Assembly: GCA_025058955.1 (NCBI GenBank)
Contig: JANXDV010000001.1
Coordinates: forward strand, 1-35,970
DNA length: 35,970 bases
Direction of reading: 5' to 3'
Source: Archaeoglobaceae archaeon
GTDB lineage: Archaea > Halobacteriota > Archaeoglobi > Archaeoglobales > Archaeoglobaceae
Shown here: piece by piece, positions 3,311 to 35,970 of the stretch
Numbering within the stretch: position 1 is the first letter of the stretch
Layout: each line of letters starts with the position of its first letter
The notes under the pieces: generated by a model
Databases searched by the model: none
Seen by the model: the letters and a program-made list of their open reading frames with translations, nothing else
Told to the model about the DNA's origin: nothing
Made by a program: the position numbers and the translations under genes

Positions 3311-3706
3311 CTATTTTATAACTTCATTCATATAAAATAGTTTATAAAAGTGAGGATGAGAAGGTTACATCGAAGTGAACAACCTTATTTAGAATTCCTA
3401 ACCTTGCTAAATGCTTTCAAGATCTCAATCGATCTTCTCTTCCTCTCAAAAATCTTTTGCTCAGCTTTTTTCTTGACTTGAGCAATGCGTAAATTAAAAC
3501 ACTGAAATCAAAGAATATCATAAATCTCGATCTTGTTCTAATGCTGGGCTAAGATTACTTCATCTACAAAACTTTTAACGCCATTTCTTCGGGATTGCAA
3601 TTCTCTATGCTTATCAAATTTTTTGAGTTCTATTCTCATAATTTGATTTGGTGCCATTGCTAATAAGATTGCCACCATATTTTTATTCTCGTTTTAAAAT
3701 CTGACA

Positions 3707-3779
3707 AGCCACGGGCGGGATTTGAACCCGCGACCGCTTGCTTACCAAGCAAGCGCTCTCCCTGCTGAGCTACCGTGGC
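3707..3779 (-). tRNA. tRNA-Thr (anticodon GGU)
   Basis: Manual cloverleaf. The acceptor is GCCACGG/CCGUGGC and U8 and A14 are present. The D stem is GCUC/GAGC with G18G19. The anticodon stem is CUUGC/GCAAG with loop UUGGUAA. The T arm is GCGGG-UUCAAAU-CCCGC and the discriminator is U. CCA is not encoded. Confidence 0.95.
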
Positions 3780-3806
3780 TTTTTAATATTTTAAAGGTTC
3801 TCAGAT

Positions 3807-8039: not shown

Positions 8040-8966
8040 ATGGATATAATCAAGATCCTCAAAGAAAAAAAGCCGAAAAGAGCTTTAGTTTTTGGAATGG
8101 GTGGTGGAGGAGATATAGTTAGCACAATTCCAGTAGCAAATTTCCTAAAGCTATTCGACTTCGATGTGATCCATGGTGGAGTTCTCTGGGATCGCCTCGT
8201 TATCGATCCAAAGCCAGGACCAAGAGCGATAGAAGAACTCGAAAATGTTGAAAAAATCAACGATGTTCTAGCATTTTTGAACGAGAAAACAAGAACAAAT
8301 TATGGAGTTAAACCGAACCTCGCGAGATCTGCAAAGTATTTAGGGAAAGTCGTTGCTCTTGATATTACAAAGGGTGTTAGGAAACTCAAAAAAGGATTAG
8401 ATGATTTCGCTTCAGAGAATAAAATAAGTCTTCTTATAGGAGTTGATGCAGGAGGAGATGCTATAGCGGTTGGCTATGAATCTGGTGTTAGAAGTCCACT
8501 TGCAGACGCTTTAAGCTTAGCGGTTCTTAGCGAGCTCAATGGTATTGTCGCTATTGTGGGCATTGGGGGTGATGGAGAGTTAAAATTAGAAGAGCTTACT
8601 CTGAACATCGCAGAACTTTTCAAAAATGACGGTTTCTTAGGATGCTCCTCCATTACAACTGAAGATTGCAGAGAAATGTTGATGTTATGTGAGGAAGTAG
8701 TCACCGAGGCGAGTAAGATACCTATAATAGCCAAAAAAGGTGAAGTTGGTTTGAGAAAGATAAGAAGGGGCAGAACTGTGTTGATAACACCTTTTTCCGC
8801 TTTGATCTTCTACTTTAAAGCAAAGAAGGTTTTTGAGATAAACGAGACCGCAAAGCTTATAGTGGAAGCCGAAAATCTTGAAAAGGCAAATAGAATTCTG
8901 AACAAAAATGGTATAATTACAGAGCTGGATTACGAAAGATCAGTCTCCAATGTCGAAATCACTTAA
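8040..8966 (+). CDS. conserved hypothetical protein, DUF1152-like
   Basis: About 300 aa with GMGGGGD and VDAGGD glycine-rich motifs, as I recall for the archaeal DUF1152 family. The assignment is from memory only. Confidence 0.45.
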   Translation: MDIIKILKEKKPKRALVFGMGGGGDIVSTIPVANFLKLFDFDVIHGGVLWDRLVIDPKPGPRAIEELENVEKINDVLAFLNEKTRTNYGVKPNLARSAKYLGKVVALDITKGVRKLKKGLDDFASENKISLLIGVDAGGDAIAVGYESGVRSPLADALSLAVLSELNGIVAIVGIGGDGELKLEELTLNIAELFKNDGFLGCSSITTEDCREMLMLCEEVVTEASKIPIIAKKGEVGLRKIRRGRTVLITPFSALIFYFKAKKVFEINETAKLIVEAENLEKANRILNKNGIITELDYERSVSNVEIT

Positions 8967-9620
8967 GTCTACTATTTCCTCATCGATCTCAAATCCAAGG
9001 TCTTTCTTAACCTCTTTTCTCTCTTTATCCTCTCTTTCAAACTCTCTGCCTTTTTCTAATATATTTTGCTCTTCTTTCAATTTCATTAAAGCATTTATCA
9101 CTGCACTTCGAAACTCTTCGAGATCTGGATCGTATTTCTCAATCACCGCTTTTTCTTCCCCATTCTCAATTGCCCTAATCCTTTTTAAAGTTGCTTTAGC
9201 GGTCTCAACGATCCAATAGTCTCTTGTTTGAAAATCTGAAGAATTTATGTTTTCAGGTCTGATCAAGGGAATTACTCTGTCACCTCTTTCAAGCAGTTTT
9301 GCCTTTGCAGTGATAGCTACGATCTCAGGAGGGTTTAAGTCTACCAATGCCTCAAGGGCTTCAGGTTGGAACTTGCTCACAAATCCAAGAAAAGAACCAG
9401 TTGGATCTGCAACGCGAATTCGCCACATATCTGAGTCAGGTTTTACTTCTTCTTTTTCGAGTAGAACGCCAACGATAAAAAGTCTATTACATCTCAAACC
9501 AAGAGGGGTTAACACATACACCGCTTCTTTCTCCCCTTCTCCACCTACTTTGAACTTAGAATAATTGAACTCCTTAGAAAAAACCCTTTTAGCAACTTCT
9601 CTTTTCATACCCTTGATCAT
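8940..9620 (-). CDS. RPA-associated OB-fold protein (COG3390 / RPAP-like)
   Basis: It is translationally coupled (ATGA overlap at 9617-9620) to the upstream RPA gene. It has an OB-fold-like N-terminal half and an acidic C-terminal tail. The pairing is as described for haloarchaeal rpa-rpap operons. Confidence 0.6.
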   Translation of the reverse strand: MIKGMKREVAKRVFSKEFNYSKFKVGGEGEKEAVYVLTPLGLRCNRLFIVGVLLEKEEVKPDSDMWRIRVADPTGSFLGFVSKFQPEALEALVDLNPPEIVAITAKAKLLERGDRVIPLIRPENINSSDFQTRDYWIVETAKATLKRIRAIENGEEKAVIEKYDPDLEEFRSAVINALMKLKEEQNILEKGREFEREDKERKEVKKDLGFEIDEEIVDLSDFDIGD

Positions 9621-10540
9621 ATTCCCTCCTCTCCGAGGACTTTCTCAACTTCTTTTAGTATTTCGGGTCTGTAAAACTCTACGCTACTGGCATTTAGCGA
9701 TCTGAACCTTAGCTCACCGCTAACCTTAAGGTATTTTCCAAAAAGTCTCTTTTTTAACTCCATGAGAACGATGCTTCTATCTAAATGTTCTTCAGCGAGT
9801 TTTCTTGCCTCTTTGATTCCAATTCCAGTTAAAGAGCTAATGCATTTCTCATTCAATGTGAGATCGTATGTTCTTTCACCATCATCGAGAACCCCTCTTA
9901 AGCGCAGAACCTCGTTAGTCTCAACTTTTCCATGTTCTACACAGATTCCTGCTTTCACTACCCTTCCACAGAGCTTACAGGTTTGGAGTAATCCGCTGTT
10001 CTGTTGGATCGCTACCAATGCTCCAACTACTTCAATTTCCCCCCTCTCCTCTTTTACTTCGATCTCTTCCGAGATCTCCTTTATATCGCTTACACTCGTT
10101 ACTTTTATACTCTTAATACCCATGAATTCGTCCACCACGACTTTTTCAAAAAGATAACTTTTACCCTCTTCCAATCTCTTTTTGTTCGATTTCGACCAAA
10201 CCACAAATCTTGCGGTTCCAGTTTCATCCCCAATAAGCCCAGTTTGAGCTATAGTTGGGCTACTCGGCTCCCAAAGCTGTATAATTTTGCCTTTCAAACT
10301 GACCCATTGATTCGGTTCAATCTGTGAGATCTTAACAATAGGGGTCTTCAAATCTCCCTTCGCAATGTTATAATTTTTCCTTAAACCGTTTACTATAGTC
10401 CTTTTCGCTTCTTCTTCTGGAACCTTGAATTCAAAAAGCAAGAGCTTCAATCTACTCTCAATCTCTTTTCTCGTTACACCATAAACTTTAAACCTTTCAT
10501 AGATCTCGTTGACAATTGTCTGAAATCTGTCTTCTGCCAT
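9617..10540 (-). CDS. rpa: replication protein A (ssDNA-binding, OB folds plus zinc finger)
   Basis: OB-fold segments and a CX2CX8CX2H zinc finger (CKLCGRVVKAGICVEH). I chose the start at ATG 10540 (MAEDRF...) because the 63-codon upstream extension overlaps the divergent sua5 gene and looks non-protein-like. Confidence 0.8.
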   Translation of the reverse strand: MAEDRFQTIVNEIYERFKVYGVTRKEIESRLKLLLFEFKVPEEEAKRTIVNGLRKNYNIAKGDLKTPIVKISQIEPNQWVSLKGKIIQLWEPSSPTIAQTGLIGDETGTARFVVWSKSNKKRLEEGKSYLFEKVVVDEFMGIKSIKVTSVSDIKEISEEIEVKEERGEIEVVGALVAIQQNSGLLQTCKLCGRVVKAGICVEHGKVETNEVLRLRGVLDDGERTYDLTLNEKCISSLTGIGIKEARKLAEEHLDRSIVLMELKKRLFGKYLKVSGELRFRSLNASSVEFYRPEILKEVEKVLGEEGI

Positions 10541-10614
10541 GTGTTCAATACTTGATCGGGATAAAAAAAGCTTTTGTTCAGGAAGATTTAAAAGTAGTGG
10601 GAGTAATTTTTCAT

Positions 10615-11547
10615 ATGGAGCTCCTCTATCCTGTGGAGAATGACATTGATAGAGCGGTTGAGATCCTAAAGAAAGGGGGCATTGTAGCCTTTCCAACTGA
10701 AACCGTTTATGGGATTGGATGTGATGCATTCAATGAAAAAGCTGTTGAGAGATTGTATGAGATTAAAAAGAGATCAAGAGATAAACCCCTAATAGTCGGG
10801 GTTGGTAGTTTTGAAGAAATTTACGAGATCGCAGAAGTAAATGAAGTAGCGGAAATACTCATAAAGGAGTTCTTTCCAGGTTCTCTAACGCTTGTTCTCA
10901 AGAACAAAAAAATTCCATCAATAGTAACTGCAAACTCTCAGAAGGTTGCAGTAAGAATGCCTTCTCATGAAATCCCATTAAAGCTGATCAGGAAGCTTGG
11001 AAGACCAGTTGTTGTTCCTTCTGCAAACATCTCAGGCAGACCAAGTCCAACTAAGTTTGAACATGTGCTTTCCGATTTCGGTGAAAGTATAGATGCGATC
11101 ATAATTGGAGAGTGCCAAATTGGTATTGAATCAACCATTTTAGATGTCACAGTTTCTCCTCCAAAACTCCTTCGACCTGGAGCGGTAAGCACAGAGGCTT
11201 TGAAAAAATTCGTAGATCTGGAAGTCGGAGAGGATACCTTTGGACAATACGAGATCTCCGCAGAAGTTCTCGTTTTTACTGGAAGAGGTGTAGAGGAGGA
11301 GATAAAAAAATTCCTTGCTAAAAGAAAAAACGCGGTAGTCATTGCAAAGAAGAACATTTATGGAGAGAGAGTTATAGAAGTCGGTGAGACTTTGGAGAGC
11401 TATGCTATGAATTTTTTTGATGCTTTAAGAAAAGCTGAGAGTATGGGTGCAGAGGTAATTCTTGTTGAGGGTATTGAGGAAAAAGGAATTGGTGAAGCTA
11501 TAATGCATAGGTTATACAGATGTGCGAGGAATGTTATTAGAGTTTGA
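10615..11547 (+). CDS. sua5: threonylcarbamoyl-AMP synthase Sua5/TsaC (YrdC plus Sua5 domains)
   Basis: Motifs AFPTETVYGIGCDA, KKRSRDKPLIV, VAVRMP, SANISG and TILD, plus a C-terminal Sua5 domain. Start at ATG 10615 (MELLYPV...). Confidence 0.85.
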   Translation: MELLYPVENDIDRAVEILKKGGIVAFPTETVYGIGCDAFNEKAVERLYEIKKRSRDKPLIVGVGSFEEIYEIAEVNEVAEILIKEFFPGSLTLVLKNKKIPSIVTANSQKVAVRMPSHEIPLKLIRKLGRPVVVPSANISGRPSPTKFEHVLSDFGESIDAIIIGECQIGIESTILDVTVSPPKLLRPGAVSTEALKKFVDLEVGEDTFGQYEISAEVLVFTGRGVEEEIKKFLAKRKNAVVIAKKNIYGERVIEVGETLESYAMNFFDALRKAESMGAEVILVEGIEEKGIGEAIMHRLYRCARNVIRV

Positions 11548-11589: not shown

Positions 11590-11976
11590 ATGAAAGAACA
11601 GGCTGAAGTTAGACAACTTAGAGAAGGAGGCTATGTTGTGATCGATGATGAGCCTTGTGAGATCATTAGCATCTCTGTAAGTAAACCCGGAAAGCATGGA
11701 GCTGCAAAGGCGAGAATAGATGCCATTGGTATCTTTGATTCCCAGAAAAGGAGCATTGTTGAGCCGGTTACAGCAAAGATCTACATCCCAATGGTTGAAA
11801 GAAAAAGAGCACAAGTGCTGAGCATTGCTAAGGATAACGCACAGTTGATGGATCTGAGCACTTTTGAGACTTTTGAACTTCCAATTCCTGAAGAATTGAA
11901 GGATAAGGTCTCTGCTGGGAAAGAAGTAATATACATCGAGTCCCTTGGCAAAAGGAAAATAGAAAGGATGGCTTAA
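11590..11976 (+). CDS. eif5a: translation initiation/elongation factor aIF-5A
   Basis: Hypusination loop SKPGKHGAAKAR and a C-terminal OB domain. Length 128 aa. Confidence 0.92.
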   Translation: MKEQAEVRQLREGGYVVIDDEPCEIISISVSKPGKHGAAKARIDAIGIFDSQKRSIVEPVTAKIYIPMVERKRAQVLSIAKDNAQLMDLSTFETFELPIPEELKDKVSAGKEVIYIESLGKRKIERMA

Positions 11977-12888: not shown

Positions 12889-14181
12889 ATGGAGATCGTT
12901 TACTGGAAGGAGCTCGGAAAAGAAACTGGGAAAGTGAAGATAAAAAAGGAAAGCGTAAGATACAGACTTGCACCATTTGTCCAGTGGAAAGTTCTAGTAG
13001 CTGAAAAAACTGTAGAAGTTAAAAAAGGTTTGCCAGTAGTTTTGAAGATAAAAGACGTCGCAATTCCAGAAAACACGATCCTCGCACCCCTTTCTATTAT
13101 GAGACATGCGTTGGGGACTACAATAGATGTTATTGAAAAAGGTATTTCGAAGGTTGAGGATGAGAAAAAGATAACTCATGCAATTTTCCTGCCAGTTGAG
13201 GATGGAATTGTAGAAGAAGGGGATATAATAGGCGTTTTAAAGGTTTTCTTCGTAAAGACAGGGCTTCTTGATCGAAGATTTGGTTTTTCTGCTTCAGACA
13301 TAAAGATCAGAGAAGACATGGTTTCAGCAAATCTTGTGTATAAAGAAAGAGGAGAATTGAAGAGAGAGAAGGTTAGGACCAGATTTTTTGGATACTTCAA
13401 GAGCTACATTGCTGAATGGGAGCCTGTGGTTTCAGCGGAGAACATTGATGTTAAAAAAGGAGAAGTGAAAAGAATTAAGATAAAAGAAATAGTTTTACAG
13501 CCAAATACCGTAGTTTCACCTCTGCACATAATGAGAAATGCATTTGGGAGTGTAATAGAAGTCGTTCAGGAGGGAAAACCCTCGAAGGTTGAGGAGGAAA
13601 AGAGGATCGTTGAAGCGATCTTTCTCGCAAATAGAGATGGAAAAATACAAAACGGGGATCTGCTTGGCGTTTTAAATGTTTACTACACAGCAATCGGCAA
13701 ATTCGAGCCAAAGATGAGTCAAAAGGAGGAAAAATTTGCGAGAATAGTCTATGAGAGGTCTGGAAAAATCTTTAGAGATGGGATGATCCTAAAGCCTTTT
13801 GCTTACAGAAGAAAACCGATTGCTAGATGGGAACCGATCGTTGCAGATAAAAATGTTGCGGTAAAGAAGGGAGAAGTTGTTGAAATAGAGATCGAGCCCA
13901 TAAAGCTTGAAGAGAACACAATTGTATATCCCCTGTATATCATGAGAAACGCTTTTGGCACGATCGTTGATCTAATAGAAAAAGAACCCGCGAGAGTTGA
14001 AGATTCAAAGGTTATAGAAAAAGTCCTGTTTTTACCCATATTTGACGGAGAGGTTAAAAAAGGACAGCTACTTGGTGTTGTAAATGTTTACAGCGTTGAG
14101 ATCGAGTCCTATGAAATTCTTGGTAAATGGCTCAGTGAATGGGTGGAAGAGATGAAAAAGGCTATTGGAGAGGTGACTTAA
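12889..14181 (+). CDS. hypothetical protein made of three tandem copies of a domain of about 125 aa (possibly DUF2118/barrel-sandwich-hybrid-like)
   Basis: The internal repeats start near aa 2, 147 and 284. Each carries W(E/K)P-V, VKKGE, PL-IMR-A-G--I and FLP--DG---G---GV-NV blocks. There is no signal peptide. Confidence 0.6.
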   Translation: MEIVYWKELGKETGKVKIKKESVRYRLAPFVQWKVLVAEKTVEVKKGLPVVLKIKDVAIPENTILAPLSIMRHALGTTIDVIEKGISKVEDEKKITHAIFLPVEDGIVEEGDIIGVLKVFFVKTGLLDRRFGFSASDIKIREDMVSANLVYKERGELKREKVRTRFFGYFKSYIAEWEPVVSAENIDVKKGEVKRIKIKEIVLQPNTVVSPLHIMRNAFGSVIEVVQEGKPSKVEEEKRIVEAIFLANRDGKIQNGDLLGVLNVYYTAIGKFEPKMSQKEEKFARIVYERSGKIFRDGMILKPFAYRRKPIARWEPIVADKNVAVKKGEVVEIEIEPIKLEENTIVYPLYIMRNAFGTIVDLIEKEPARVEDSKVIEKVLFLPIFDGEVKKGQLLGVVNVYSVEIESYEILGKWLSEWVEEMKKAIGEVT

Positions 14182-18714: not shown

Positions 18715-19968
18715 ATGTATTCCGAGATCTTCAATATAATCAGGAAGCACAATGAGATGATGAGAAACTCTATTCCATTGATTGCAAGCGAAAATCTAAC
18801 TTCCGAACTTGTTAGGAAATGCTACTTAGCGGATTTTGGTCATAGATATGCGGAGGGAAAAGTTGGAGAAAGATACTATGCGGGGTGTAAATTCATAGAC
18901 GAGGTTGAGGATCTCGCAATCAGACTAACTAAGAAACTTTTTGATGCAGAACATGTCAATCTACAACCAATTTCGGGTGTGGTAGCAAATCTTGCAGCAT
19001 TTTTTGCATTAACAAAACCTGGAGATACAGTTTTTAGTATATCAGTTCCCTGTGGGGGACATATAAGCCATGACAAGATCTCTGCTGCAGGATTAAGAGG
19101 TTTAAAAGTTGTTTACTATCCATTCGATGTCAAAGCGATGAATTTAGATCTTCCCGCAACTGAGAAGCTTGCAAGAGAAGTAAAGCCAGAGCTCTTCATA
19201 CTTGGCTCAAGTCTCATGCTCTTTAGACAGCCTGTGAAGGAGATCGTTGAGATCGCAGAAGAAATTGAGGCAAAAGTTATGTTCGACGCAAGTCATGTTC
19301 TTGGACTGATAGCGGGGAAAGTTTATCCAAATCCAATGAAAGAGGGGGCGGATGTGCTAACCGCTTCCACTCATAAAACCTTTTTTGGACCTCAAAGGGC
19401 TCTAATCTTAAGCAAGGAGAGTTTGGCAAAAAAGATCGATAGAGCGGTTTTTCCTGGAGTTGTGAGCAATCATCATCTCCATTCCTTAGCGGGATATGCG
19501 ATTGCAGTGATGGAAATGCTTGAATTTGGTGAAGAATACGCTAAACAAGTTGTAAAAAATGCAAAAAAACTTGCGGAGGAGCTTTATAACAGAAATTACG
19601 CAGTTCTTGGAGAGAAGTTTGGATTTACTGAGACTCATCAAATCGCAATAGACGTTCGTTCCTTGGGAGGAGGAGATCCAGTTGCGAGAAAGCTGGAGGC
19701 GGTAGGGATAATAATAAACAAAAATCTACTACCGTGGGATCCACTTGAGAGCACCGCAAATCCATCTGGAATTCGACTTGGAGTTCAAGAAGTGACAAGA
19801 CTTGGAATGAAGGAAGAGGAAATGATTTCAATTGCTGAATTCATCGATATGGCTATAAAGGAGAAAAAGAGTTTTGAAGAACTCAGAAAAGAGATCTCAG
19901 AGTTTAGAAGGGATTTTCAAACTGTAAAGTTCACCTTTGAAGAGTGCAATGCGTATTCTGAACTATGA
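18715..19968 (+). CDS. glyA: serine hydroxymethyltransferase
   Basis: Motifs LIASEN, RYYAGC and the PLP-lysine motif TASTHKTFFGPQRA. Confidence 0.92.
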   Translation: MYSEIFNIIRKHNEMMRNSIPLIASENLTSELVRKCYLADFGHRYAEGKVGERYYAGCKFIDEVEDLAIRLTKKLFDAEHVNLQPISGVVANLAAFFALTKPGDTVFSISVPCGGHISHDKISAAGLRGLKVVYYPFDVKAMNLDLPATEKLAREVKPELFILGSSLMLFRQPVKEIVEIAEEIEAKVMFDASHVLGLIAGKVYPNPMKEGADVLTASTHKTFFGPQRALILSKESLAKKIDRAVFPGVVSNHHLHSLAGYAIAVMEMLEFGEEYAKQVVKNAKKLAEELYNRNYAVLGEKFGFTETHQIAIDVRSLGGGDPVARKLEAVGIIINKNLLPWDPLESTANPSGIRLGVQEVTRLGMKEEEMISIAEFIDMAIKEKKSFEELRKEISEFRRDFQTVKFTFEECNAYSEL

Positions 19969-29625: not shown

Positions 29626-32600
29626 GTGGAAGTGATCTACGAAAAGCTTTGTCCAGCCTGTGGAGGAGATTTGAGCTGGAAAGAGCTGACTTCTCACTTT
29701 TGCGAGAATAAAAAAATCGAGATTTGTGCAATGGATGAGATTAAACCCTTTGAAGAGTTATTTGCGAAATGTGTTGGTGAGCCAAGAGAGATACAAAGGA
29801 TGTGGGCGAAGAGAGTTCTTCGTGGTGAAAGCTTTGCGTTAACCGCACCAACTGGCATAGGAAAAACATCTTTTGGACTTGCAATCTCTCTTTTTCTGGC
29901 AAAAAATGGAAAGAGATGCTATATAATATTTCCAACTTCAGTTCTCGTTAAGCAGGCGGTTGAAAATCTTAGAGCTTATGCAGAAAAAATTGGTCTGGAG
30001 TTGAGTTTTAACGATACTGAAAAATTTCCAGTTGGATTTTATCATTCAGAGGTCAAAGCTAAGGAGGAATTCTTTGAAAAAATCAAGGATTTCAGAATTT
30101 TGATCACAACCGCACAATTTCTTGCCAAGAACTTCGAAAAGATGAAAGATATGAGCTTTGATTTCATATTTGTAGATGACGTTGATGCGATCCTCAAAAT
30201 GTCAAAAAACGTTGAAAGAATACTTAGCTTGCTTGGAATTGAAAAGGGTAAAAAAGGAGTTCTTGTAGTCTCAACCGCAACCGCTAAAGTTGGTAAAAAA
30301 GCTGAACTCTTTAGAAAATTCCTGAATTTCAGCATCGGCTCTTCTCAGTTTTATTTGAGAAACATTGAAGATGTAATATTGAGCAATTTTGAAGATCTGC
30401 AACTAATACTTACCAAGCTTGGTTCTGGGGGAATAATATATGCGAGAAGCGTTGAAGAATGTGAAAGGATTAAGAAAGCGCTTTCAGGGTTCAAAGTTGG
30501 CATTGTAACCTCTAAGGATTCAAAAGACTTCGAACTTTTTTCAAAAGGTGAGCTCGATTTTCTCGTTGGCACCGCACACTATTACGGCATTCTCGTTAGA
30601 GGTATTGATCTTCCTGAAAGGATAAAGTTTGCAATCTTTATTGGCTGTCCTGTGCATAGGATAAAGATCGAAGATCTTGACTCCACTCCAATTTCAGTAA
30701 TTAAAATTCTTGCTCTCGCTCTAAGAGAGGACAAAAGGCTTGAAAAGTTTATTCCAAAGCTTAAATTTGCTGAAAAAATTGAAAAAGAGTTGAGGAATGT
30801 TTTGAAGGAGATCATAACGGAAGGTAAGATCCGGCTTAAAGATGTGGTAGTTCGAAAGAACGAGGTAATTTTTCCAGACATTAGAACCTATCTGCAAGCT
30901 TCAGGTAGAACTTCAAGGCTCCATGCGAAGGGATTAACGAAGGGTGCAAGCTTTGTTTTCGAAGAAGATCAGGAAATTCTCAAAGCTTTCATCGAAAGGG
31001 CAAAGTTCTACGACATAAACTTCACAAAAATCGACTCGGTTAACCTTGAAAAATTAAGGGAAGAACTTGAGGAGAGCAGAAGAAAGGAAGAAAAAGCAGA
31101 GCTAATTAAACCCGCCCTGCTAATAGTTGAAAGCCCAACAAAAGCTAAACAAATTGCAAGATTTTTTGGAAAACCAAGTATAAGGTTTATCGATTCAATT
31201 CCAGTTTATGAGGTGCCAACTGAAAGGTATTTGCTTCTGATCACCGCAACTCTTGGACACATAACAGATCTGGTGACGAAAAGAGGATTCTATGGGGTTC
31301 TTGAAAATTTCATCCCTATTTATGGAACAATAAAGAAGTGTAGAAAGTGTGGTCATCAGTTTGTTGACGATGATTTCTGTCCGAGATGTGGTTCCACTGA
31401 GTTCGATGATGCCTTTAAGCGAATTTCTGTGCTAAGAAAATTGGCAGAAGAAACTGGCTTTGTGATCATTGGCACAGATCCGGATACTGAAGGAGAAAAG
31501 ATCGCATGGGATCTGAGCAATCTTCTCTGCGGAGACATAAAGAGAGCAGAATTTCATGAGATCACGAAGAGAGAAATAAATAAGGCATTGAAAGACCTCA
31601 GAGAGATTAAAAGGAACCTTTTAATGGCGCAGATCGTTCGAAGAATAGAGGATAGATGGATAGGTTTTGTTTTAAGCCAAAAAGTCCAGGAATACTTTAA
31701 CAAGAGGCATTTGTCCGCGGGCAGAGCTCAAACTCCTGCTTTGGGATGGATTGTTGAGAGATATAGGGCTCAGAAAGTTAAGAAAAGCCTTGCATTCATT
31801 CCAGAGCTCGAGATCTATGTTGAAACCGATAATAAGGAGCTTGAAGTGAAAGTGGAGCTGATAGAAGATAGAGTGGAATTCCGAACTCCAATGCCACCAT
31901 ATACCACGAACTCTCTCTTGTTTGATGCAAACGCAATTTTAAAGCTATCTACAAAGGAGGCAATTGAAATCGCTCAGGATTTATTTGAGAATGGTCTTAT
32001 AACCTATCATCGCACGGATTCCACAAGAGTGAGCGAGCATGGAAGAAATTTGGCTAAGGAATATCTTGGAGACGATTTTAAGGGTAGAGAATGGTTCTTT
32101 GAAGGCGCGCATGAGTGCATACGCCCCACAAGAGCAATTGATAGAAATACGCTTGAGAGATTGATAGAGGAAAGGATCTTAGATCTTGAAAACTTTAGAT
32201 GGACTCATTTAGCCCTCTACGATCTGATCTTTCGAAGGTTTATGGCATCGCAGTGTAAAGATTACATGGTGAGGGTGAAAAAGTATCGAATTACAGCCAA
32301 TGGAAGATCTTTTGAGGATGAAAGAGTAATTGAAGCTACTGGAAGAGCTTATGAGCTATATAAATCTGTTTGGGTAAGAAAAGAGCTTAAAGAAGGGACA
32401 TTCAAGGTTCAAGCAGAGATTAGACGTATTCCCTCAGCACCTCTTTTAACACAGGCGGAACTAATAAATTTGATGAAGGAGAAGGGTATTGGAAGACCCT
32501 CTACCTATGCGGTTATCGTTGACAGGCTTTTTACAAGACACTACGTTTTAGAGAAAAATGGAAAACTGATACCAACAAAGGAAGGAATTTCAGTTTACGA

Positions 32601-32745
32601 TTTTTTGAGCTCAAATTATGCTCCATTCATTTCCGAAAGTAGAACCAGAACTTTGGAGGAGAAGATGGATGCAATAGAAAAAGGAAAGATGGATTATATT
32701 GAAGCGATTAAAGAGCTCCGAGAAGAAATTGAGAGGATCTGCTAA
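29626..32745 (+). CDS. rgy: reverse gyrase (helicase-like domain fused to type IA topoisomerase)
   Basis: N-terminal Zn finger (CPACGG), helicase motifs APTGIGKT and DDVD, Toprim (ESPTKAKQIARF, DPDTEGEKIAWD), an internal CX2C...CX2C finger, and the active-site Tyr context ITYHRTDST. Confidence 0.95.
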   Translation: MEVIYEKLCPACGGDLSWKELTSHFCENKKIEICAMDEIKPFEELFAKCVGEPREIQRMWAKRVLRGESFALTAPTGIGKTSFGLAISLFLAKNGKRCYIIFPTSVLVKQAVENLRAYAEKIGLELSFNDTEKFPVGFYHSEVKAKEEFFEKIKDFRILITTAQFLAKNFEKMKDMSFDFIFVDDVDAILKMSKNVERILSLLGIEKGKKGVLVVSTATAKVGKKAELFRKFLNFSIGSSQFYLRNIEDVILSNFEDLQLILTKLGSGGIIYARSVEECERIKKALSGFKVGIVTSKDSKDFELFSKGELDFLVGTAHYYGILVRGIDLPERIKFAIFIGCPVHRIKIEDLDSTPISVIKILALALREDKRLEKFIPKLKFAEKIEKELRNVLKEIITEGKIRLKDVVVRKNEVIFPDIRTYLQASGRTSRLHAKGLTKGASFVFEEDQEILKAFIERAKFYDINFTKIDSVNLEKLREELEESRRKEEKAELIKPALLIVESPTKAKQIARFFGKPSIRFIDSIPVYEVPTERYLLLITATLGHITDLVTKRGFYGVLENFIPIYGTIKKCRKCGHQFVDDDFCPRCGSTEFDDAFKRISVLRKLAEETGFVIIGTDPDTEGEKIAWDLSNLLCGDIKRAEFHEITKREINKALKDLREIKRNLLMAQIVRRIEDRWIGFVLSQKVQEYFNKRHLSAGRAQTPALGWIVERYRAQKVKKSLAFIPELEIYVETDNKELEVKVELIEDRVEFRTPMPPYTTNSLLFDANAILKLSTKEAIEIAQDLFENGLITYHRTDSTRVSEHGRNLAKEYLGDDFKGREWFFEGAHECIRPTRAIDRNTLERLIEERILDLENFRWTHLALYDLIFRRFMASQCKDYMVRVKKYRITANGRSFEDERVIEATGRAYELYKSVWVRKELKEGTFKVQAEIRRIPSAPLLTQAELINLMKEKGIGRPSTYAVIVDRLFTRHYVLEKNGKLIPTKEGISVYDFLSSNYAPFISESRTRTLEEKMDAIEKGKMDYIEAIKELREEIERIC

Positions 32746-32763
32746 TTTACCTTTGGAAATTAG
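32742..32763 (+). terminator. hairpin ctaattt-(8 nt)-aaattag overlapping the rgy stop codon
   Basis: A 7-bp perfect inverted repeat, read directly. A terminator role is inferred only from its position. Confidence 0.25.
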
Positions 32764-32769
32764 AAAGAC

Positions 32770-32777
32770 TTATATAA
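32770..32777 (+). promoter_or_regulatory. TATA-box candidate (ttatataa, preceded by purine-rich agaaagac) for the aro leader/operon
   Basis: Centred about 25 nt upstream of ATG 32798, the spacing of a leaderless archaeal promoter. Confidence 0.4.
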
Positions 32778-32797
32778 CCTTGCTATAACGCTGATCA

Positions 32798-32875
32798 ATG
32801 CCAGCTAAACCAATGCAAACCTACGCATATTTCTTCGATTTTAGGTTTAGCTGGAGCTATAGGTTTAGCTACTAA
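32798..32875 (+). CDS. putative aromatic-rich leader peptide MPAKPMQTYAYFFDFRFSWSYRFSY (25 aa)
   Basis: I translated this codon by codon; it is below the ORF-track cutoff. It contains 5 Phe, 4 Tyr and 1 Trp codons and lies directly upstream of the aroA'-aroB'-aroD-tyrA genes. Confidence 0.45.
   Translation: MPAKPMQTYAYFFDFRFSWSYRFSY
32801..32870 (+). promoter_or_regulatory. alternative-pairing RNA element inside the leader
   Basis: ccagctaaacc (32801-32811) and ggtttagctgg (32844-32854) form an 11-bp perfect inverted repeat. taggtttagct is directly repeated at 32842-32852 and 32860-32870. All were read directly from the sequence. Confidence 0.4.
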
Positions 32876-32944
32876 AAGGAGGTGTTCTGCATTGGCTTCG
32901 TCTGCGTATATCTTTATGCTTTATAAATATAAGAGGTGTTTTAT

Positions 32945-33727
32945 ATGATTGGAAAATTAAGGAGATTGAGGAGAATAATACGAAATGGAAGAACTTTGAT
33001 CATGCCAATGGACCATGGAGTTAGCAAAATAGAACATGGGCTCGAAAACGTCGAAGAAATTCTAAAAGCGGTGAGTGACTACATCGATGCGGTGGTTTTG
33101 CATAAAGGTGTTGTGAAGAATTCAAAAATCGTTGCAGATCTTGAGATCGGGCTGATAGTTCATCTGAGTGCATCAACAAGTTTGAGCAAGGATCCGAATG
33201 ATAAAAGAATAGTCTCGAGTGTGGAGCATGCAATAGCTCTTGGAGCGGATGGAGTTAGCGTTCACGTGAACATTGGAAGCGAAACTGAGGCAAGACAGCT
33301 CGAAGAGCTCGGCAAAGTTTGTGAACTCGCTGATAGCTATGGCATTCCAACGCTTGCGATGATGTATCCTCGTGGTAAGGTGGACGTGAACACTGAAACT
33401 GTAACACAAGCTGCGAGAGTTGGGTATGAACTTGGTGCGGACATAGTGAAAGTGCCATACGTTGAAAAGTTCTCGCAAGTTGTAAAATTCTGCAAGGTTC
33501 CAGTTGTAATTGCAGGAGGGAGCAAGGAAAGCGAGAATGAGCTTTTGAAAAAAGTGGAGATCGCGTTGAAAAATGGTGCATGTGGAGTTGCAGTCGGGAG
33601 AAACATTTTTAGCAGTTCATCGCCGAGAGACATTGCTAAGGCACTGCATCACATAATACATGATGGGATGAGTGCCGAAGAAGTGATCGAGTATGAAGGA
33701 GATCTGGTTGCTGGCAGATGGAGATAA
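32945..33727 (+). CDS. aroA': 2-amino-3,7-dideoxy-D-threo-hept-6-ulosonate (ADH) synthase, class I aldolase family
   Basis: GKLRRLRRI...LIMPMDHGVS N-terminus and the DhnA/FbaB-type aldolase fold. It is assigned to ADHS rather than FBP aldolase because DHQ synthase II follows it. ATG 32945 lies 7 nt after AGAGGTG. GTG 32936 is also possible. Confidence 0.75.
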   Translation: MIGKLRRLRRIIRNGRTLIMPMDHGVSKIEHGLENVEEILKAVSDYIDAVVLHKGVVKNSKIVADLEIGLIVHLSASTSLSKDPNDKRIVSSVEHAIALGADGVSVHVNIGSETEARQLEELGKVCELADSYGIPTLAMMYPRGKVDVNTETVTQAARVGYELGADIVKVPYVEKFSQVVKFCKVPVVIAGGSKESENELLKKVEIALKNGACGVAVGRNIFSSSSPRDIAKALHHIIHDGMSAEEVIEYEGDLVAGRWR

Positions 33728-34658
33728 CTGGGAAGAAGTGAAAGCAAGCTTAAGAAATGCTATCGAACTCGGCTTTGATGGAGCAATAGTTAGAGAAAAT
33801 TACATAGATCGAGCTAAAAAGCTTGGAAAGATCGAGCTATTACCACTTGAGGAGATTGTTGAAATTAAGTCCGCAAGAGATCAGGAGATGGCATTGAGCA
33901 AAAAAATCGCAGTCTTAAAGTTCTCCGATTGGAAAGTGATCCCATTGGAGAACATAGTTGCGATGAAGAAAGGAAAGGCTATTGTGATCGTTGACAACAT
34001 AGAAGATGCGAAGCTTGCGCTGATGACACTTGAAAAAGGTGCGGATGGAATTGCTGTGAAAGGGGATAGAGAAACGCTTAGAAAGTTTTACGAAGTTGCT
34101 AAATACTCGAATGAGAAAACAAAGCTGTATAGAGCAAAAATAAAAGAAATAAGACCGCTTGGACTTGGAGAAAGAGTTTGCATAGACACCGTTTCGATCA
34201 TGTCAATTGGCGAGGGAATGCTTGTAGGCAACAAGGCGGGATTCATGTTCCTAATTGCAAGTGAAAGCGAAGAAAGCGAGTATGTCGCTTCAAGACCATT
34301 CAGAGTGAACGCTGGAAGCGTTAATGCTTATCTGAAGGTTGGTGAAAAGACGAGATATCTTTCAGAGTTGAAAGCAGGTGATGAGGTTGAAATAGTCAGC
34401 TTCGAAGGAAAAGTCAGAAAAAGCTATGTTGGCAGAGTAAAGATCGAGCGCAGACCTTTGCTACTCGTAGTTGCTGAAGCAAATGGAGTTGAAGGAAGTG
34501 TTATTTTGCAAAATGCTGAGACTATTAAGCTCATAAATCCTGAAGGCAAACATGTTTCCGTTTCTGAGCTAAAGATTGGTGATGAAATTCTTGTCTGGGT
34601 TGGAGAAAAGGCAAGGCATTTTGGAGTTAGGATCGAGGAGTTCGTGATTGAAAAATGA
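33693..34658 (+). CDS. aroB': 3-dehydroquinate synthase type II (archaeal)
   Basis: About 320 aa with a K-IW..AD...WEE.K..L..A.E.G.DG N-terminus as in MJ1249-type enzymes. It sits between ADHS and aroD. Confidence 0.75.
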   Translation: MKEIWLLADGDNWEEVKASLRNAIELGFDGAIVRENYIDRAKKLGKIELLPLEEIVEIKSARDQEMALSKKIAVLKFSDWKVIPLENIVAMKKGKAIVIVDNIEDAKLALMTLEKGADGIAVKGDRETLRKFYEVAKYSNEKTKLYRAKIKEIRPLGLGERVCIDTVSIMSIGEGMLVGNKAGFMFLIASESEESEYVASRPFRVNAGSVNAYLKVGEKTRYLSELKAGDEVEIVSFEGKVRKSYVGRVKIERRPLLLVVAEANGVEGSVILQNAETIKLINPEGKHVSVSELKIGDEILVWVGEKARHFGVRIEEFVIEK

Positions 34659-35254
34659 GACTCGTTGCAACTGTTTCGAATTCTGAAGAGTTAAAGCTTG
34701 CAGAGCGAGCGGATTTGATAGAGCTTAGGCTCGATCTTGGAGAATTTAAGGAAATTCCCAGAGGTAATTTTATTGTGACATGCAGAAGAAAAAGTGAGGG
34801 CGGGCTTTACGATGGAGAAGAGGAAAAAAGGATAGAAAAAATGAGGTTTTTTGCTGAAAAAGTGAATGCTGAGCTTGTGGATCTTGAGTTTGACCTTCCA
34901 GATCGCTATTTTAAAGAATTCAACTGCAAGATCATCGAGTCCTACCACAACTTCAAGGAAACGCCCAATTATAGCTTTTTAAAGGACCTCGTCGAGAGTA
35001 AAAGGGGTGACTATTTTAAGATTGCAACTCTCGGCAAAAGTGAAGAAGATTGGAGAAAGATCGTTAAGATCCTCTTAGAATACGAAAACGTTGTGGCATT
35101 TCTAATGGGTGAAAAATTCAGCTATACGAGGATCTTCTCCGCCTATCTTGGCTCACCATTCATCTACTGCTACGTCGGAACAAAAAAAGCTCCCGGACAG
35201 ATCGAGCTGAACGATGCAGCTCAGATCCTTAGACTCTTAGGGGTGAGAAGATGA
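34655..35254 (+). CDS. aroD: 3-dehydroquinate dehydratase, type I
   Basis: ADLIELRLDL N-terminal motif, ESYHNF, KIAT (Schiff-base Lys context), about 200 aa. ATGA overlap with aroB'. Confidence 0.8.
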   Translation: MRLVATVSNSEELKLAERADLIELRLDLGEFKEIPRGNFIVTCRRKSEGGLYDGEEEKRIEKMRFFAEKVNAELVDLEFDLPDRYFKEFNCKIIESYHNFKETPNYSFLKDLVESKRGDYFKIATLGKSEEDWRKIVKILLEYENVVAFLMGEKFSYTRIFSAYLGSPFIYCYVGTKKAPGQIELNDAAQILRLLGVRR

Positions 35255-35970
35255 AGATCCTGATCTACGGCGTTGGAGATCTTGGAACTTTGTTGAAGGA
35301 TTTCTTTTATTCGCGAGGCTACGATGTGAAGGGCTATGATGTGGATGAAGCGAAGAAGGAAACTGAAAACATTTCAGAATTTGACGTGATCTTTGTTTGC
35401 ACACCAATGGGAGAAATAAGGAATGCACTTGGCCATATAAGAAGTGAGGCGAAGAAAAGTGCTTTGCTCGTTGATGTAGCTTCTGTCAAGAGCGTTTCGA
35501 TTTCATTATTTGAAAGATCCGGCTTTGATTTTCTCAGCATTCATCCAATGTTTGGAAAAGATAGTGAATTGGCTCTTTCAAATATAATAGTAGTTCATGA
35601 ATCTGGAAGAGAGGAAGAAAAAGTTATATTGAATGAATTTATAAAAAGTGGAGCTCAAATAACAAGAATGAACGCTGAAGAACATGACAAAAACATGGTG
35701 AAGATCCAAGGGTTAACGCATTTCTTGCTATTGGTTTTTGCGGATCTCTCAGAAGATCTAAGCTATGGAACTCAGAATTACAACGTTCTACGTAAACTTT
35801 CAGCAAGATATCTCGAGCAGAACTGGGAAATGTGCTATCTGATCCTAAAAAATGCTGAAAAGGATCGAGAAGAATTTATTAGCAGAATAATAGCTCTAAA
35901 TGAGACGATCAAAGACAGAGAGAAGTTCCGAAGGGTTTTTTCGAGGTTAAAGGAGCTTTCAGATCTCGCA
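35251..35970 (+). CDS. tyrA: prephenate dehydrogenase (3'-truncated by the window end)
   Basis: Not in the ORF track because no stop occurs before the window end. I translated it manually as MKILIYGVGDLG (Rossmann)...DVASVKS...SIHPMFG...EEHDKNMVKIQGLTHF. ATGA overlap with aroD. Confidence 0.8.
   Translation, partial: MKILIYGVGDLGTLLKDFFYSRGYDVKGYDVDEAKKETENISEFDVIFVCTPMGEIRNALGHIRSEAKKSALLVDVASVKSVSISLFERSGFDFLSIHPMFGKDSELALSNIIVVHESGREEEKVILNEFIKSGAQITRMNAEEHDKNMVKIQGLTHFLLLVFADLSEDLSYGTQNYNVLRKLSARYLEQNWEMCYLILKNAEKDREEFISRIIALNETIKDREKFRRVFSRLKELSDLA

Follow-up and report, generated by a model that had tools for sequence, protein, structure and literature searches.

The locus described here raises the question of why a short open reading frame (ORF) packed with codons for phenylalanine, tyrosine and tryptophan lies directly ahead of an aro operon in an Archaeoglobaceae archaeon (assembly GCA_025058955.1, contig JANXDV010000001.1, positions 1 to 35,970 of the forward strand; this whole stretch of 35,970 nucleotides is referred to below as the window). 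Ribosome-mediated attenuation is a textbook form of gene control in bacteria. In silico analyses indicate that the best explanation for the segment 32769-32948 is a promoter followed by the regulatory leader of the archaeal aro operon, and comparison among relatives makes this leader a strongly supported conserved element, of a kind known in bacteria and not previously shown in Archaea. The rate at which the leader is translated most likely reports the charging of the three aromatic tRNAs (probability ca. 0.75). The route by which this signal would reach the operon, probably at the level of translation, is proposed below with a confidence somewhat short of even.

The leader ORF, its promoter and the operon

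The region lies directly 3' of a reverse gyrase gene (29626-32745, stop at 32745) and contains the following features.

32762-32777, plus strand: promoter, with a purine-rich element AGAAAGAC resembling a transcription factor B recognition element (BRE), then the TATA box TTATATAA
32798-32875, plus strand: leader ORF of 25 codons, MPAKPMQTYAYFFDFRFSWSYRFSY, with a TAA stop at 32873-32875
32945-35970, plus strand: aro operon, with aroA' (32945-33727), aroB' (33693-34658), aroD (34655-35254) and tyrA (from 35251, truncated where the window ends)

The original prediction had singled out the ORF at 32798-32875 for its 10 aromatic codons out of 25, and a new reading of the sequence returned the same ORF with the same composition. 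These codons (5 Phe, 4 Tyr and 1 Trp) all fall among the last 17, at 32822-32872, and are called the sensor codons hereafter. With an aromatic fraction of 0.40, the ORF ranks first among 454 small ORFs of the window (runner-up 0.38), and the binomial probability of finding 10 aromatic codons out of 24 at a background of 0.114 is 1.5e-4. Judged from the window alone the ORF is suggestive, and these statistics are not decisive by themselves; the decisive support comes from the comparison across lineages.

The TATA box occupies 32770-32777, its first T being 28 nt ahead of the A of the leader ATG, with 20 nt between box and ATG. Real leaderless genes of the window show this spacing too, with a range of 28 to 31 nt (SHMT at 18715, DUF22 at 12889 and an ORF at 11590), and together with the 29-33 nt found in relatives (see below) it is consistent with the leaderless arrangement that had been put forward. 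It fits a transcription start at, or within a few nt of, ATG 32798, which would make the leader ORF a leaderless first cistron. The reverse gyrase gene points to a (hyper)thermophilic host, and because the genome encodes this enzyme, RNA folding at 65-80 °C is relevant to the locus.

The identity of the genes that follow the leader, claimed to be those of ADH synthase, dehydroquinate (DHQ) synthase II, dehydroquinase and prephenate dehydrogenase, agrees with Pfam matches (DeoC, DHQS, DHquinase_I and PDH_N). The operon encodes a DeoC-type ADH synthase, a DHQ synthase II, a type I dehydroquinase and a prephenate dehydrogenase; homologues of aroA' carry the name ADH synthase, and relatives keep the same gene order. 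No biosynthetic operon other than aro was found in the window.

Conservation of aromatic leaders across Archaeoglobi

The loci compared encode relatives of the AroA' protein of the window and were collected from one genome per species, from metagenomes and by individual homologue look-ups; they are labelled by L-numbers. Upstream of aroA', a short ORF that begins with ATG, covers 20-38 codons and is aromatic in its C-terminal half occurs in 24 of the 25 Archaeoglobi lineages, among them Archaeoglobus profundus, A. veneficus, A. neptunius, Ferroglobus and Geoglobus. The original prediction had proposed as a test that an aromatic-rich upstream ORF (uORF) should be conserved before orthologous aro operons, which is what this distribution indicates.

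Over 23 leaders, aromatic codons make up 208 of 585 in-frame codons (36%) as compared to 36 (6%) and 64 (11%) in the other two frames. Each leader contains 7-13 of them, with Phe, Tyr and Trp all present in 22 of 24, and the start is ATG in 24 of 24. All 23 leaders analysed are preceded by a box of the TTTAAATA or TTTATATA type, whose first T is 29-33 nt upstream of the ATG. The N-terminal half of the peptide, its length and most of its positions vary freely while the aromatic run persists, as seen in the following peptides.

L004: MPAKPLLNLEFFGFRFSWYYWFSY
L169: MDRELKPTTNCGFFYGFSYAFSF
A. neptunius: MANAIYDCRAEFFFGFWYQFSF
A. veneficus: MELIHSNVGYNFGFWFGFWWFSFSC
A. profundus: MHKMKIPYNPWSFFFFSFSF
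Ferroglobus: MLAKSHDNLTFGYFFWFTFSFSYRYSF
Geoglobus: MSLSFCRGWESGFFGFFSYSFSY
L085: MSKLSSSEVCKRFWYFGFSFSFGYYY

A C-terminal pattern in which aromatic and small residues alternate, F-x-F-x-W-x-Y-x-F-S-[FYC], is maintained up to the stop codon. The residues that alternate with the aromatics are Ser, Arg, Gly or Cys in the leader ORFs of all 23 loci (32840-32872 in the window). The gene located 5' of the leader varies by genome and may be reverse gyrase, Hef, Usp, PolD, TFB, an ion channel or others, which indicates that the leader ORF belongs to, and travels with, the aro operon.

The sole exception is A. sulfaticallidus (L164:2340-2460), in which the aromatic frame FWFSFGYPFFY and its stop are one T out of register with the ATG, inside the T-run TATTTTGG; with the missing T restored the leader would end in SYFWFSFGYPFFY. 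The frameshift could be an assembly error or reflect real decay of the leader. A. fulgidus was not named among the best 120 matches of either protein search.

A blind scan was applied to 933 kb on both strands, in which a TATA box had to be followed 27-34 nt on by an ATG opening an ORF of 15-45 codons with at least 6 aromatics in the last 14 residues. It returned 34 hits: 30 correspond to these leaders, 3 to a second family linked to aro operons and 1 to a spurious antisense ORF inside a gene. When 10 of the leader peptides were looked up for exact matches in a collection of 15 billion proteins, none was present.

A second family of aromatic leaders

The second family recovered by the blind scan consists of aromatic-rich uORFs, unrelated in sequence to those of Archaeoglobi and predicted to be leaderless, which occur at aro operons in metagenome-assembled genomes of other Euryarchaeota.

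L034 (2793-2960) and L100 (1-104): leader MAMAGKINSILNEFFLGQNFFYFYFW, directly before aroA'
L087 (36-200): leader MSVLERINIILNEFFLDKKLFYFYFY, before the genes for the N and C subunits of transketolase, then aroA'
L014 (1079-1226): leader MNPIGKKQTSRFFLGSSYFYFR, before the genes for the N and C subunits of transketolase, then aroA'

The peptides of this family end in ...FFYFYFW, ...LFYFYFY and ...SSYFYFR. Their TATA box is located 31-34 nt upstream, a conserved hairpin of ca. 10 bp begins 1-3 nt past the stop codon, and a gene encoding a TrmB-family regulator lies upstream in L034 and L014. This family provides independent support for the view that aromatic leader peptides are recurrent at archaeal aro operons.

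Nothing comparable was found at ca. 130 other loci, of methanogens and other archaea. Two further sets of short ORFs were observed in methanogens. Ten Methanosarcina loci (L021, L025, L035, L036, L038, L039, L050, L060, L067 and L070) share an ORF of 44-45 residues (MLVVYNPAGFRLKKDARIMQLLFYTLGSEVEEGYSGIYQNENTKQ) that lies 110-205 nt upstream of aroA' and is not notably aromatic. In Methanobacteriaceae (L023, L028, L047, L059, L063 and L072), an ORF of 26-30 residues ending in ...GHQL is located at a fixed distance of ca. 178 nt upstream of aroA' and may sit inside the upstream gene in another frame.

The sensor codons can pair with the start region of the leader

The sensor codons of the window overlap segments that can pair with the very beginning of the predicted transcript. 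The helix formed by the first two of the segments below is referred to as P1.

32801-32811, plus strand: 5' arm of P1, CCAGCTAAACC, in codons 2-5 and adjoining the 5'-terminal AUG
32844-32854, plus strand: 3' arm of P1, GGTTTAGCTGG, in the Arg16-Phe17-Ser18-Trp19 codons
32859-32870, plus strand: second partner of the 5' arm, in the Tyr21-Ser24 codons, complementary at 11 of 12 positions
32908-32915, plus strand: pyrimidine-rich anti-Shine-Dalgarno segment ATATCTTT, which can pair with the Shine-Dalgarno (SD) motif past the leader stop (SD2, see below) or with that of aroA'

The two arms of P1, CCAGCTAAACC and GGTTTAGCTGG, are complementary over all of their 11 nt. The second partner arises from a direct repeat, TAGGTTTAGCT, present at 32842 and 32860. 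The exact motif GGTTTAGCT is limited to three sites of the leader within the window, and a dispersed repeat or mobile element was rejected because of this confinement. The 85-nt leader has a more stable fold than shuffled sequences (z = -2.9), which is not the case for the whole 155 nt (z = -1.0).

An alignment of the 14 alignable leaders (A1) was used for an RNAalifold consensus, which contains two helices: P1, joining transcript nt 2-14 with the Arg-Phe-Ser-Trp codons, and a helix between the AUAUCUYU pyrimidine stretch and the SD motif of aroA'. P1 is nearly invariant within the clade of the window and has 94% of cells paired, a value that exceeds all shuffled and slid controls. For the anti-SD segment ATATCTTT, pairing with the aroA' SD is seen in 92% of cells, likewise in excess of the shuffled and slid controls, and pairing with SD2 in 90%. 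At 65-80 °C P1 alone is expected to remain folded, as the anti-SD helices are predicted to melt at 65 °C or above.

Outside the clade, helices between the 5' end and the sensor codons are found with unrelated sequences in four lineages.

L169: AGCUAAAGCC with GGCUUUAGCU
L007: GUGCCAG with CUGGCAC
L084: AUGCCGUCAG with CUGGCGGUAU, G-U pairs included
L008: GCUCUCUCCC with GGGAGAGAGC

The 3' arm spans the Trp codon in L007, L084 and L008, and the presence of G-U pairs in some of these helices argues for RNA rather than a DNA operator. In a test for a helix between the 5' end and the sensor codons, 15 of 23 leaders scored at p <= 0.05. Regulatory codons thus sit in an alternatively pairing RNA segment in the clade of the window and in these four lineages, not in all. 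The pairing on which the original prediction had been built was confirmed as a perfect 11-nt match, invariant in the clade and re-invented with other sequences elsewhere. Its claim of a second partner for the same segment stands in part: 8 of 11 clade sequences have a strong pairing of this kind (-11 to -14 kcal/mol), L001 and L168 a weaker one, and in L005 and L010 it is poor or absent; it is not predicted to survive at 65-80 °C.

Several other candidate structures were discarded. Helices P2 (32810-32817 with the start of the second ORF, 32888-32895) and P3 (SD2 with the anti-SD segment) are compatible with most sequences, performed no better than shuffled controls and displayed no covariation; an inner hairpin CUUU...AGAG was less consistent than the outer anti-SD helix. 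Scans of the window for tRNAs and with Rfam 15 gave no match at gathering score except a tRNA-Thr, and a permissive Rfam scan of 32600-33100 (E <= 10) returned just three snoRNA or miRNA matches at chance level. Matches to sigma-70-like promoters are meaningless in an archaeon.

A putative relay between the leader and aroA'

Ribosomes that complete the leader would meet a second set of translation signals before they reach aroA'.

32878-32884, plus strand: SD2, GGAGGTG, 2 nt past the leader stop
32892-32948, plus strand: relay ORF (ORF2) of 18 codons, with a TTG start 7 nt past SD2 and a TGA (32946-32948) that overlaps the aroA' ATG at 32945
32932-32947, plus strand: ribosome binding site of aroA', AGAGGTGT, with an invariant TTTTAT spacer and the ATG

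The junction between ORF2 and aroA' is an ATGA, with GAGGTG 6 nt upstream; GGTGTTTT is found just twice in the window. Among relatives, an SD2 motif lies 1-7 nt past the leader stop in the 14 A1 sequences and in L006, and 13-18 nt past it in L085 and L165. In the 14 A1 sequences, ORF2 starts with TTG, GTG or ATG 4-7 nt past this motif and is 13-23 codons long; its stop lies within -10 to +16 of the aroA' ATG, with an ATGA junction in six and an overlap of +11 in seven. Its position is kept while its frame and peptide differ among relatives, which points to selection on translation across the ribosome binding site of aroA' and not on the product. This architecture is the signature of a coupling relay, and the relay role that had been suggested for SD2 and the second ORF is consistent with their conservation as a translated spacer ending at the aroA' start. 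Leaderless initiation depends on AUG, and the contrast between the leader start, always ATG, and the start of ORF2, which may be TTG, GTG or ATG, fits this dependence.

There is no relay ORF in L008, L009, L084 and A. profundus, in which the aroA' SD follows the leader; a GGGGGUGU-type SD motif is found in L008, L009 and L084, that of L084 being just AAAGGUGG. A role of ORF2 as a second aromatic sensor was rejected as neither its frame nor its peptide is conserved. The aromatic codons to which the original prediction had drawn attention in ORF2 are incidental to a conserved AU-rich stretch and are themselves not maintained as codons. This AU-rich stretch, UAUAAAUAUAAG, and the SD-to-start spacer GGUGUUUUAUAUG (together 32916-32944) are nearly invariant in the clade of the window. 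The stretch is TATA-like, with a spacing that is wrong for aroA' and no BRE, and an internal promoter TTTATAAATATAA at 32920-32932 was rejected since its transcription start would fall inside aroA' and no BRE is present.

According to Huber et al. (2019, 2023), as reviewed in PMC12548453, coupling by termination and reinitiation works in an archaeon and tolerates spacings of up to ca. 30 nt with decreasing efficiency. The overlap of the ORF2 TGA with the aroA' ATG corresponds to the commonest configuration (-4), and the leader stop, 16 nt before the ORF2 start, lies inside the range that still supports coupling. In contrast to NTGA-coupled genes, which encode subunits of protein complexes, the partners at the leader are two non-conserved mini-ORFs that are predicted to be coupled as a relay.

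A model of sensor, lock and relay

These features can be assembled into a model in which P1, the sole helix predicted to be stable at growth temperature, pairs codons 2-5 beside the 5' AUG with the Arg-Phe-Ser-Trp codons. Whenever the sensor codons are free, P1 would form and lock the entry site for leaderless ribosomes. A ribosome dwelling on hungry aromatic codons 12-22 would hold P1 open and allow more ribosomes to load. Those that finish the leader would terminate 2 nt before a perfect SD2 and reinitiate on the 18-codon ORF2, whose TGA, overlapping the aroA' ATG, would hand them to aroA'; slow decoding of aromatic codons would in this way increase the delivery of ribosomes to aroA'. The logic common to the different lineages may be that the sensor codons form one arm of a helix closing a ribosome entry site, which a paused ribosome opens. 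In the variant without relay ORF, exemplified by A. profundus, the sensor codons can pair directly with the aroA' SD.

A folding model including the ribosome footprint is consistent with the lock. At 70 °C, nt 1-15 are unpaired with a probability of 0.09-0.42 in free RNA. A ribosome covering codons 12-22 raises this to ca. 0.5-0.8, and the lock closes anew when the ribosome occupies the last three codons; this behaviour was obtained for 10 of 11 clade sequences and for L008 and L084. For A. profundus, the minimum-free-energy structure at 70 °C contains a helix between the Asn-Pro-Trp-Ser codons and the aroA' SD, and accessibility of the ribosome binding site rises from 0.24 to ca. 0.35 with a ribosome over these codons. 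Pairing between the leader ORF and the SD of the downstream gene is confined to some relatives, namely A. profundus and L085.

Two more direct outputs were rejected: unmasking of the aroA' ribosome binding site by a paused ribosome had no consistent effect at 37 or 70 °C in footprint-constrained partition functions, and the effect of a paused ribosome on SD2 was small and mixed.

A number of observations weigh against the model. No P1-type helix could be detected in A. neptunius, A. veneficus, Ferroglobus, Geoglobus, L006, L009 and L170, which means that the lock cannot be a universal output. Accessibility of the aroA' ribosome binding site of the window, as calculated in the thermodynamic model, is unchanged by the position of the ribosome (0.31 throughout), that of SD2 and the ORF2 start drops slightly with a ribosome on codons 18-22, and leader ORFs are not generally enriched in anti-SD sequences (median z = 0.29). 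The aroA' SD and SD2 are both predicted to be open at 65-80 °C, in which case ribosomes could initiate internally de novo, circumventing the relay and weakening any translational control. With reinitiation as the sole route, a full stall would cut the flow to aroA', and the model needs pausing, not arrest. Finally, Ser is encoded by AGC in 43 of 68 leader Ser codons as compared to 36% in aroA', and a UUUAGCU motif with a self-complementary AGCU core is recurrent; both show an extra constraint at the nucleotide level, beyond codon hunger, which is not fully explained. The original prediction had held that the output mechanism cannot be deduced from the sequence, and this still applies.

Alternative explanations

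The sensor codons could serve the same purpose with a different output, if the position of the first ribosome, loaded co-transcriptionally, decided on termination of RNA polymerase at U-rich tracts in or past the leader, on its release by the archaeal factor FttA/aCPSF1 or on the speed of mRNA decay from the 5' end. Once the sensor codons have been transcribed, P1 hides the start region, so that only nascent RNA would be translated, and this is the synchronisation that such a mechanism needs; the predicted lack of structure at the aroA' and SD2 sites at growth temperature also speaks against purely translational masking. T-tract termination, which the original prediction had retained as a possible output, received little help from the comparison: tracts of T5-T7 lie past the leader stop in L009, L007, L162, L161 and L169, but none is conserved across lineages, no terminator-like site was found and the longest T-run between sensor and aroA' is 4 in the window and its clade. 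Polarity through FttA is known in Archaea (PMC12548453), yet a stalled ribosome, uncoupled from transcription, should raise it, the opposite of what a biosynthetic operon would call for, and the conserved architecture of SD2 and ORF2 would be left without a role. Such a transcript-level output, although the main rival, is rather unlikely. In a TnaC-like scheme, the nascent aromatic peptide and free aromatic amino acids would jointly make the ribosome stall on or close to the stop codon, and this ribosome would cover SD2, switching ORF2 and aroA' off in times of plenty. This would give the correct sign of regulation without extra assumptions, and it would account for the C-terminal alternation of aromatic and small residues up to the stop, for the very short distance from stop to SD2 conserved in the long class of leaders, and for the occlusion of SD2 over the last 3-4 codons in the footprint model. 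Occlusion is not general, however, as 18-36 nt separate the stop from the following SD in L008, L009, L163, L165 and L007; length and sequence vary greatly except for the aromatic content, and P1 is given no role, all of which makes an arrest peptide improbable.

The remaining two explanations dispense with the sensor. One takes the ORF as incidental and the conserved entity as a DNA operator or as an RNA that is either structured or bound by a protein; the nucleotide-level invariance of CCAGCUAAACC and GGUUUAGCUGG in the clade, the recurrence of UUUAGCU and the bias for AGC speak for it. Distant lineages nevertheless keep aromatic codons and an open frame despite different nucleotides (208 in frame against 36 and 64), the start is always an ATG at leaderless distance from a TATA box, the G-U pairs in the helices exclude DNA palindromes, and no Rfam family is relevant even at E <= 10. 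The probability left for this explanation is small. Smaller still is that of a functional aromatic peptide acting in trans and co-expressed with the aro operon. Although the ORF is conserved across the class and its C-terminal half is amphipathic with a beta-strand-like alternation, its N-terminal half, its length (20-38 residues) and most of its positions vary, and composition rather than sequence is conserved; the ORF invariably opens the aro operon as its first cistron, irrespective of the gene next to it, and an unrelated family of the same composition is found at aro operons of other archaea.

Other features of the window

Three observations concern other parts of the window. An aromatic-rich ORF of 37 codons on the minus strand (12997-13107) is antisense within the DUF22 gene, with a TATA-like box 31 nt upstream, and is probably spurious; the blind scan gave no other false hit in the window. 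Two adjacent ORFs of 226 and 370 residues (8940-10729, minus strand) have no Pfam match at E <= 1e-5. The tRNA-Thr(GGU) gene at 3706-3780 (minus strand) is the sole RNA family match in the window.

Comparison with known leader peptides

In E. coli, pheL-pheA, trpL-trpEDCBA and the multivalent ilvGMEDA leader are ribosome-mediated transcription attenuators of the Yanofsky type, with leader peptides rich in residues of the end product. The archaeal leader resembles them in being a short ORF before a biosynthetic operon, packed with end-product codons, and in having its regulatory codons inside the arm of a helix; like the ilv leader, it is predicted to sense several end products together, here Phe, Tyr and Trp. 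It differs in that it occurs in Archaea as a predicted leaderless ORF with neither a 5' untranslated region nor an SD, in that it has no GC-rich hairpin with U-run terminator and no terminator/antiterminator pair, and in that the sensor codons pair with their own start region and an SD-led relay ORF precedes the first gene. The arrest peptides TnaC, ErmCL and SecM combine a specific peptide sequence with a ligand or a pulling force. They have in common with the leader a short upstream ORF whose ribosome controls, or in the leader would control, a site just past its stop, whereas in the leader composition and codon identity are conserved and sequence is not.

In Corynebacterium glutamicum, according to Neshat et al. 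(2014) as summarised in PMC11802643, the aroR leader peptide upstream of aroF (DAHP synthase) acts by transcription attenuation through Phe-Tyr-Phe and responds to Phe. On this account, aroR-aroF also has an aromatic leader peptide at the entry to the common aromatic pathway and not at a terminal branch; it is bacterial and contains Phe-Tyr-Phe alone, as compared to 7-13 aromatic codons including Trp ahead of an archaeal ADH synthase. Mycobacterial leaderless Cys-rich (polycysteine) small ORFs are translational attenuators (bioRxiv 10.1101/834739). They, too, are leaderless first cistrons, as predicted for the archaeal leader, are enriched in codons for the amino acid of the operon and exert control of translation via RNA pairing disrupted by a paused ribosome, as proposed here. 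The mycobacterial ORFs mask the SD of the next gene, whereas the sensor codons of the window would mask the 5' entry site of the leader itself and the ORF is not predicted to mask the aroA' SD; the A. profundus version resembles the mycobacterial layout.

The original prediction had regarded leader-peptide attenuation as not established for archaeal biosynthetic operons, and the full-text literature searched agrees, since no archaeal amino-acid leader-peptide attenuator is described there and a primary-transcriptome paper of 2014 states that attenuators in Archaea lacked direct experimental support (PMC4247193). Haloferax uORFs have been reported by differential RNA sequencing and ribosome profiling, without an assigned sensing role.

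The aro leader may tentatively, at a confidence clearly below even, be considered the first amino-acid-sensing leader-peptide attenuator in Archaea, one that would act on a leaderless mRNA with sensor codons locking their own 5' entry site and with a mini-ORF relay; on the same tentative footing, the second, unrelated family would mean that this type of control has evolved at least twice in Archaea. A sensor helix that locks the 5' entry site of its own mRNA would, if true, be a principle not described in bacteria. The locus is also a case study for control of leaderless mRNA after initiation and for the feeding of internal cistrons with ribosomes. Genome annotation misses aromatic leader ORFs such as these, and scans for a TATA box, an ATG and a short ORF of skewed composition could uncover further archaeal leader peptides. 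As a candidate distributed across the class, with A. profundus, A. veneficus, Geoglobus and Ferroglobus as cultured carriers, the leader makes translational sensing in cis of amino acid supply in archaea directly testable.

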